Shown here: one piece after another, positions 34,437 to 34,616 of the stretch
Layout of the letters: every line of letters begins with the position of its first letter
Position numbering within the stretch: the stretch's first letter is position 1
Assembly: GCA_010015805.1 (NCBI GenBank)
Contig: ML978130.1
Coordinates: 558,001-622,000, forward strand
Direction of reading: 5' to 3'
DNA: 64,000 nucleotides
Source: Rhizodiscina lignyota
Lineage: Eukaryota
The notes under the pieces: model-generated
Seen by the model: the letters and a program-made list of their open reading frames with translations, nothing else
What the model was told of the DNA's origin: nothing
The model's database searches: none
Translations under genes and position numbers: made by a program

Positions 34437-34616
34437 ATGAAGTCCGTTGTCCAGATCTTCTTCGCCGCCCTTCTTGCCGCCGTTGCGGTCCAGGCAGCTC
34501 CGGTCGCCGAGGCTGAATTGAGCGAGGTCCTCAGAGTCAGGAGCGTGGATGGCGTCGAGTGCTTCGTCAAGCGTTCGGACGGCCTGTACGAGCGCCAAGC
34601 CACTTATGGCTGCTAG
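34437..34616 (+). CDS. 59-aa secreted peptide, candidate RiPP / Kex2-processed precursor
   Basis: MKSVVQIFFAALLAAVAVQA-APVAEAELSEVLRVRSVDGVECFVKR-SDGLYERQATYGC-stop. Good caatcATG context, C/G-ending codon bias, classic signal peptide, KR site. Absent from the ORF track, whose shortest entries are 60 aa. Confidence 0.8.
   Translation: MKSVVQIFFAALLAAVAVQAAPVAEAELSEVLRVRSVDGVECFVKRSDGLYERQATYGC

Follow-up and report, generated by a model that had tools for sequence, protein, structure and literature searches.

A short gene lying between two genes of the UstYa (DUF3328) family was found in the 64 kb stretch of DNA analysed here (the window), and its product, judging from its sequence, belongs to an undescribed fungal peptide family. 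We propose that the encoded peptide is a low-copy precursor of the dikaritin type of RiPP and that the product is a whole, disulfide-closed hairpin unit, perhaps nicked at its Lys-Arg pair, a reading to which we assign a probability of roughly 0.55.

A short gene for a putative secreted pre-pro-peptide

The gene and the parts of its product are located as follows.

34437..34616, forward strand: peptide gene, 59 codons plus stop, predicted secreted pre-pro-peptide
34437..34496, forward strand: signal-peptide-like N-terminus, residues 1–20 (hydropathy screen; putative cleavage after A-V-Q-A)
34497..34541, forward strand: pro-region, residues 21–35, ending L-R-V-R (comparison with relatives; putative processing)
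34542..34613, forward strand: single family unit, residues 36–59 (motif search and unit table)
34560–34562, forward strand: C42, within the unit
34569–34574, forward strand: K45-R46, within the unit
34611–34613, forward strand: C59, within the unit and its last residue

The reading frame at 34437..34616 (+) extends from ATG to TAG and encodes 59 amino acids, the start being the first in-frame ATG past the preceding stop. The peptide contains Cys at positions 42 and 59 only, Tyr at positions 51 and 57 only, and K45-R46 as its sole dibasic pair. Cuts after R35, R46 and R53 give the pieces 36–46, 47–53 and 54–59. The coordinates, the Cys and Tyr positions and the three Arg-bounded pieces all agree with the description of the ORF in the first-pass annotation.

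The third-position GC content of the ORF was 0.76, compared with a window mean of 0.53 (sd 0.09; 174 ATG-initiated ORFs of 50–80 amino acids), and a value of at least 0.76 was reached by two of these 174 ORFs, the peptide ORF included. Because of this high value, the six relatives described below and the signal-like N-terminus, we regard the ORF on sequence grounds as a real, unannotated fungal gene. The exact peptide sequence was absent from a collection of 15 billion proteins, while the protein encoded by the adjoining UstYa-B gene was present there (NCBI), indicating that the peptide gene was probably missed by public annotation. A TATA-like run of putative function is found at 34316–34324, about 115 nt 5′ of the peptide ATG. 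An extension of the ORF by an intron was considered and rejected, as the alignment with the relatives is colinear up to the stop codon.

The N-terminus consists of Met-Lys, a hydrophobic run and the sequence A-V-Q-A ahead of A-P, thus presenting a small-x-small site. In a crude Kyte–Doolittle hydropathy screen, the best 10-residue mean was 2.91, and the peptide ORF had the strongest signal-like N-terminus among all ATG ORFs at 28–42 kb. The layout of M-K, hydrophobic run and A-A or A-P is common to all six relatives, and an A-x-A-type site occurs in seven of seven proteins. The signal peptide claimed by the first-pass annotation accordingly looks like one at the level of a crude hydropathy screen. 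The pro-region is shared by the two closest relatives, where its last residues are I-K-I-R and L-K-V-R, matching [KR]-x-R ahead of the unit. In the other four, which are more distant, it is lacking, and the signal peptide leads almost directly into unit 1.

A family of Cys-bracketed units

When 1.84 billion representative proteins were searched exhaustively with phmmer, two matches were obtained (E = 7.3e-18 and 3.7e-4), and two profile searches of a collection of 5.8 billion clusters added four relatives, bringing the total to six. All of them stem from Logan assemblies, are unnamed and carry no Pfam domain. From the window peptide and the relatives P0001, P0002 and P0004–P0007 we compiled a table of 13 units in seven proteins, in which unit 2 of P0002 was read by eye. 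The unit can be written as C-[FL]-x-[KR]-R-[SAE]-[DN]-G-x-[YF]-E-R-x(3-6)-C, which corresponds to a ring of 16–19 residues. Each of the six relatives contains two units and the window gene contains one.

Both Cys residues, the [KR]R pair, the Gly and the Glu-Arg are each present in 13 of 13 units. The Asp is found in 12 units and is replaced by Asn in the other one, and the aromatic position is occupied throughout (Tyr in 10 units, Phe in three); in the window unit the conserved residues besides the Cys and the dibasic pair are D48-G49, Y51 and E52-R53. Variation in both sequence and length (3–6 residues) is greatest from Glu-Arg to the second Cys: Y-G-C and the equivalent of Tyr57 each occur in six of the 13 units, and a Gln directly after Glu-Arg (Gln54) in the window unit alone. 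No Cys is located outside the units in any of the seven proteins. A dibasic pair (K-R or K-K) follows unit 1 at a distance of 2–3 residues in five of the six relatives, and the sixth has K-A-R. On sequence evidence, these patterns argue that the repeated and functional entity is the whole Cys-to-Cys segment, not three Arg-bounded pieces.

Several claims of the first-pass annotation have to be revised on this basis. A degenerate repeat of R-SVDGV-EC and R-S-DGLYER had been seen in the peptide; there is no such repeat, and what repeats in the relatives is the whole Cys-to-Cys segment. The description of the core as single-copy holds for the window gene, which has one unit, but not for the family, where six of six relatives have two. 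An alignment of homologs had been called for as a check on invariance, and it upheld C42, C59, KR and ER in all 13 units, but not Y-G-C (six of 13). Tyr51, one of the two Tyr pointed out there, is Phe in three units. The proposed pyroglutamate product depends on a Gln that is no family trait, and a Tyr-Cys link through Tyr57 would involve a residue kept in six units. The three Arg-delimited cores turned out to be parts of one unit, and Glu-Arg is not a kexin-type dibasic site.

Further copies of the unit were sought in the window. The unit motif occurs once in the six frames of the 64 kb, thus revealing neither a second unit nor a remnant, and tblastn of all six relatives against the window gave 34437–34613 as the only significant match. 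The motif scan and tblastn therefore led us to reject the idea that a further unit lies concealed downstream or anywhere else in the window. Within the ORF, Tandem Repeats Finder reported only a 12-nt repeat, which lies inside the signal peptide.

Searches against characterized families gave no match. Pfam returned nothing for the peptide at E ≤ 1, the best hit of a sequence profile search of the PDB had E = 1.1, and Foldseek against the PDB returned nothing at E ≤ 0.001. The best score in the ESM Atlas was 0.78, which is below the meaningful level. A word-index search with the single peptide produced no candidate, and none of the 243 pattern matches from a metagenome scan with the peptide profile was confirmed. 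A literature search for motif strings of the DGLYER type retrieved no fungal paper and one unrelated paper on fish extracts. Among the matches listed, supplements excluded, none dealt with a DUF3328 thioether or a precursor containing Cys from a fungus; two-unit relatives, if annotated anywhere, could stand in Table S2 of PMC7329392.

Predicted fold of the unit

AlphaFold2, supplied with the alignment of seven sequences, modelled the window peptide at moderate confidence, with a mean pLDDT of 69.7 and values of 77–86 over residues 31–59. Two predicted strands (residues 39–45 and 51–54) flank an R-S-D-G turn, and a third strand is contributed by the pro-region. For the relative P0005 (mean pLDDT 63.3), strands were predicted on C-F-V-K and Y-E-R in both units. 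The invariant [DN]-G is well suited to a tight turn, and a bond between the two Cys would close the hairpin at its open end. The invariance of Glu-Arg would be equally well explained by its place in a hairpin strand. Exposed, and with a small or acidic residue on its C-terminal side, the invariant dibasic pair (K45-R46 in the window peptide) looks like a good kexin site.

Two UstYa genes flank the peptide gene

The neighbouring genes are located as follows.

32938..33857, reverse strand: UstYa-A (DUF3328/UstYa), divergent from the peptide gene; four exons, splice model
33857–33614, 33555–33430, 33370–33173 and 33122–32938, reverse strand: exons of UstYa-A in the splice model
35305..36030, forward strand: UstYa-B (DUF3328/UstYa), intronless; PF11807 at 3e-32

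A Pfam scan of long stop-to-stop ORFs detected exactly two PF11807 genes in the 64 kb, and both are immediate neighbours of the peptide ORF, in agreement with the UstYa/DUF3328 cluster context that had been claimed for it. The exon pieces of UstYa-A matched PF11807 at 6.2e-14, 4.6e-8 and 4.3e-4, and the splice model, with GT-AG introns of 58, 59 and 50 nt, gave a protein of 250 amino acids without an internal stop. HQLHC and HLDHC are the HxxHC motifs of this protein, and residues 47–65 form its one TM-like segment. UstYa-B (241 amino acids) contains HQLHC and HAAHC and a TM-like segment at residues 45–63; the two proteins share 28% identity over 144 amino acids. The start codons of UstYa-A and the peptide gene are 579 bp apart, and 688 bp separate the peptide stop from UstYa-B.

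DUF3328 proteins are described in PMC12435403 as dimeric enzymes that are anchored in the membrane and face the lumen. Their activity requires a binuclear copper centre built from the motif HxxHC(x)nHxxHC, and AprY of asperipin-2a is said there to behave likewise. The double HxxHC motif has been proposed as a mark of RiPP-related DUF3328 proteins (PMC12048977). Members of the family have been reported to catalyse, among other reactions, hydroxylation, halogenation and aryl-alkyl ether macrocyclisation (PMC12435403, PMC9233826). PMC7329392 surveyed 7878 repeat precursors and found the peak of DUF3328 genes at the position adjoining the precursor gene.

Neither a tandem-repeat gene nor any other ORF with a signal-like N-terminus was found at 28–42 kb. 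Other nearby precursor candidates were thus rejected by the repeat and signal screens, leaving the peptide ORF as the only one in this interval. Since its gene has a predicted secretory signal, is flanked by genes for two lumenal copper oxidases and has no precursor-like rival nearby, the peptide is most likely a UstYa substrate, and the adjacency peak reported in PMC7329392 points in the same direction. An uncontrolled prediction of a complex between the lumenal part of UstYa-B and the peptide scored 0.00, which counts neither for nor against an interaction.

The association between the peptide and UstYa genes is seen at one locus in one genome only. A metagenome scan with UstYa-B detected three loci (L001–L003) with 50–63% identity over residues ~81–232. 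The unit motif was present in any frame at none of the three, whose flanks are short (two loci being short themselves) and whose UstYa genes are possible paralogues; L003 has an unrelated neighbourhood. At all three loci the frame breaks right after the first HQLHC-L (L001 1185–1199, L002 2194–2208, L003 6241–6255), which suggests an intron at this position in the metagenome relatives; UstYa-B of the window reads through and has no intron there.

Proposed maturation and rival explanations

For the maturation of the peptide, we infer a disulfide, a set of cleavage sites and an action of the UstYa enzymes. The signal peptide would be removed after residue 20, and the unit would fold as a β-hairpin around the [DN]-G turn, with a C42–C59 disulfide closing the hairpin in the ER. 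The lumenal UstYa oxidases would modify the unit, perhaps by C-H hydroxylation or by a side-chain cross-link involving the invariant aromatic residue. Kexin-type cleavage would remove the pro-region, and a possible nick after R46 would give a two-chain, disulfide-held product. Phe at the aromatic position of three units is compatible with a UstYa cross-link, since the ring of victorin is said to be closed by way of the side chain of a Phe (PMC9233826).

Several observations count against a dikaritin-type precursor. UstYa genes also act in non-ribosomal pathways such as that of cyclochlorotine (PMC12435403), and the UstYa-B-related metagenome loci lack the unit motif. By Pfam, none of the tyrosinase, methyltransferase, peptidase and transporter genes typical of larger dikaritin clusters was detected across the window in stop-to-stop ORFs of at least 110–120 amino acids. 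The unit is longer than known dikaritin cores, is bracketed by Cys and is present once. Finally, hairpin folding by itself, with no enzymatic modification, could account for the conservation pattern. A rival explanation, which we consider possible at well below even odds, is that the peptide is an unmodified, disulfide-stapled β-hairpin, freed by kexin from a one- or two-unit precursor and secreted to serve as an effector, an antimicrobial or a signal, with the UstYa genes acting on something else and adjacent by coincidence. The hairpins predicted by AlphaFold2, the [DN]-G that suits a tight turn, the invariant basic or acidic and aromatic residues on opposite strands, the two Cys in each unit with none elsewhere, and the UstYa-B relatives without such a peptide nearby would all fit it. 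A coincidence is harder to reconcile with the fact that the only two UstYa genes in 64 kb are the two immediate neighbours of the peptide gene and that no other substrate gene, be it a repeat precursor or an NRPS, was seen in the window (for the NRPS by Pfam). An exposed dibasic pair that is always kept and resembles a kexin site likewise speaks against a simple staple.

The small Arg-delimited cores of the first-pass annotation appear improbable as products, be it SDGLYERQATYGC carrying Tyr cross-links or pGlu-ATYGC that bears a Tyr-Cys link or is bound to the C42 piece by a disulfide. They draw support from the invariance of KR and ER in 13 of 13 units and from Tyr being the usual cross-link residue of dikaritins (PMC7329392, PMC9233826). 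The residues on which they rely are nevertheless not kept throughout, with Gln54 in one unit, Y-G-C in six and Tyr51 replaced by Phe in three, and the segment from Glu-Arg to the second Cys is the one that varies most. The pGlu hexapeptide in particular is unlikely because it needs a cut after the non-dibasic Glu-Arg and a Gln retained in one of 13 units. Judging from the alignment, the pGlu and Tyr57 proposals are thus unlikely as family traits and may apply as a lineage-specific variant. We consider it very improbable that the ORF arose by chance or is dead, a functionless, truncated relic of a two-unit gene. The ORF is unannotated and stops right after the second Cys, where the relatives go on for 4–9 residues or into a second unit, as a relic might; yet nothing is missing from its unit or its signal peptide, both of which align colinearly with those of the relatives, its GC3 of 0.76 is high, and no decayed second unit follows downstream.

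Comparison with known fungal peptide systems

The low-copy dikaritin-type precursor proposed here has its closest parallels in asperipin-2a and ustiloxin (AprA or UstA with AprY or UstYa and UstYb), where an ER-targeted precursor stands beside one or two double-HxxHC DUF3328 genes, as a putative one does here. Dibasic sites of the kexin type are shared as well, as is a conserved aromatic residue (PMC7329392, PMC9233826, PMC12435403). As portrayed in these sources, the asperipin-2a cluster is small, like the locus in the window, and has one DUF3328 gene, and the ustiloxin cluster has two. In contrast, known dikaritin cores are short, Cys-free and repeated many times, whereas the window gene has one unit (its relatives two) of 16–19 residues that is bracketed by two invariant Cys and carries the dibasic site inside. 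No sequence similarity to named families, dikaritins included, was found in Pfam and the PDB, and the window differs from dikaritin loci in that no tyrosinase or methyltransferase gene was found.

Of the features by which dikaritin loci are recognized, double-HxxHC UstYa genes adjoin the precursor gene (at 688 and 579 bp), but instead of multiple cores separated by Kex2 sites there is one unit, or two in the relatives. Accessory genes, part of the original 2015 definition as quoted in PMC12048977, were not detected in the window by Pfam, and the later definition does not require them. The locus would be dikaritin-type under the enzyme-based definition quoted in that source, and not under the older precursor-based one.

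Kex2-processed repeat proteins (KEPs), as surveyed by Umemura in 2020 (PMC7329392), have dibasic sites and a signal peptide, in the latter a predicted one, in common with the window peptide, and the two-unit relatives can be regarded as minimal KEP-like proteins; tandem repeats separated by KR behind a signal peptide are replaced in the window gene by one unit with one KR. The survey, as outlined in PMC7329392, starts from annotated proteins, applies a SignalP filter and then requires tandem repeats, so that the window gene, which has no repeat and is unannotated, fails both entry filters. The expectation of the first-pass annotation that repeat-based mining would miss this gene was therefore well founded, and the absence of the exact sequence from the protein collection agrees with it.

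That single-core, disulfide-containing fungal RiPPs exist is illustrated by acalitide, whose precursor AcaA is likewise a single-core ribosomal peptide and whose rings include disulfides probably introduced by protein disulfide isomerase of the ER (PMC10840396). Acalitide differs in being cyclised head-to-tail by the peptidase AcaB, in having four Cys and in the lack of a UstYa enzyme from the pathway as laid out in the relevant parts of that paper. No sequence relation between AcaA and the window peptide was seen. The lichen UstYa clusters of PMC12048977 have the double HxxHC motif and, in the passages describing them, no repeat-bearing precursor, and a single core peptide is considered possible by the authors; the window supplies a concrete candidate that has one unit and known relatives, the likeness to the lichen clusters being one of description and not of sequence.

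UstYa/DUF3328 genes are abundant in fungi, but mining depends on annotated proteins with multiple repeats, which leaves many UstYa clusters without a recognisable precursor. The locus offers a concrete, testable candidate for this 'missing precursor' problem, and the relatives define which residues matter. We tentatively suggest a hidden class of UstYa-modified peptides derived from one- or two-unit precursors, in which Cys-bracketed hairpins with an internal kexin site would give a two-chain, disulfide-held, side-chain-modified product; such peptides could conceivably be the missing precursors of UstYa clusters without a repeat protein. If the flanking oxidases do modify the peptide, the substrate range of UstYa enzymes would extend to Cys-containing hairpin peptides, and a search for low-copy precursors beside UstYa genes would be worthwhile. 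If they do not, the peptides would still represent a new family of small secreted fungal peptides.

Wider surroundings and a recurrent candidate promoter element

A short sequence recurs upstream of the genes at this locus, the last of which encodes a cupin.

34081..34091, forward strand: 11-mer copy 1, in the divergent UstYa-A/peptide promoter; weak candidate cis-element
35033..35043, forward strand: 11-mer copy 2, 262 bp 5′ of the UstYa-B ATG
36577..36587, forward strand: 11-mer copy 3 (one mismatch), 457 bp 5′ of the cupin ATG
37044..37478, forward strand: small cupin (Cupin_2, 6e-10) of 144 amino acids without a signal peptide, adjoining UstYa-B

With at most one mismatch, the 11-mer occurs exactly three times in the 64 kb, each time in one of these consecutive promoters, and copies 1 and 2 are surrounded by ~30 nt of looser similarity. 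The expected count was 0.72, and at least three matches were obtained in three of 100 shuffles for a motif that was chosen post hoc. The 11-mer is thus a weak candidate for a cis-element common to the UstYa-A/peptide, UstYa-B and cupin promoters. Dikaritin clusters do not usually include a cupin, and membership of this one in the peptide cluster is uncertain.

Downstream of the peptide gene, the window contains the cupin, an expansin-like DPBB protein, two HET-domain proteins, two P450s and an amino-acid permease; the permease and the P450s are 7–9 kb away from the peptide locus. The upstream genes encode an apparent membrane protein, syntaxin-6, a nitrilase and a carboxylesterase. The apparent membrane protein corresponds to adjoining ORF pieces at 30750–31975 (+), between the syntaxin-6 gene and UstYa-A, which have hydrophobic stretches and no Pfam match and may form an intron-containing membrane protein gene. 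The expansin-like DPBB protein (38087–38933, forward strand; EXPB1_D1 at 1.3e-26, DPBB_1 at 1.1e-7) is encoded ~3.5 kb downstream of the peptide gene and looks small and secreted, its first exon apparently carrying a signal peptide in another frame. Two P450s, a GMC oxidoreductase and a multicopper oxidase are encoded at 41619–43175 (−), 49842–51631 (+), 56322–57421 (+) and 60623–62766 (−), and these downstream genes for oxidative enzymes may form part of a different metabolite cluster or have no connection. A SesA/NACHT NLR-type gene and two HET-domain genes were located at 10173–13475, 39685–41361 and 46871–49135, a combination typical of a variable region rich in non-self-recognition genes in the genome of a filamentous ascomycete.
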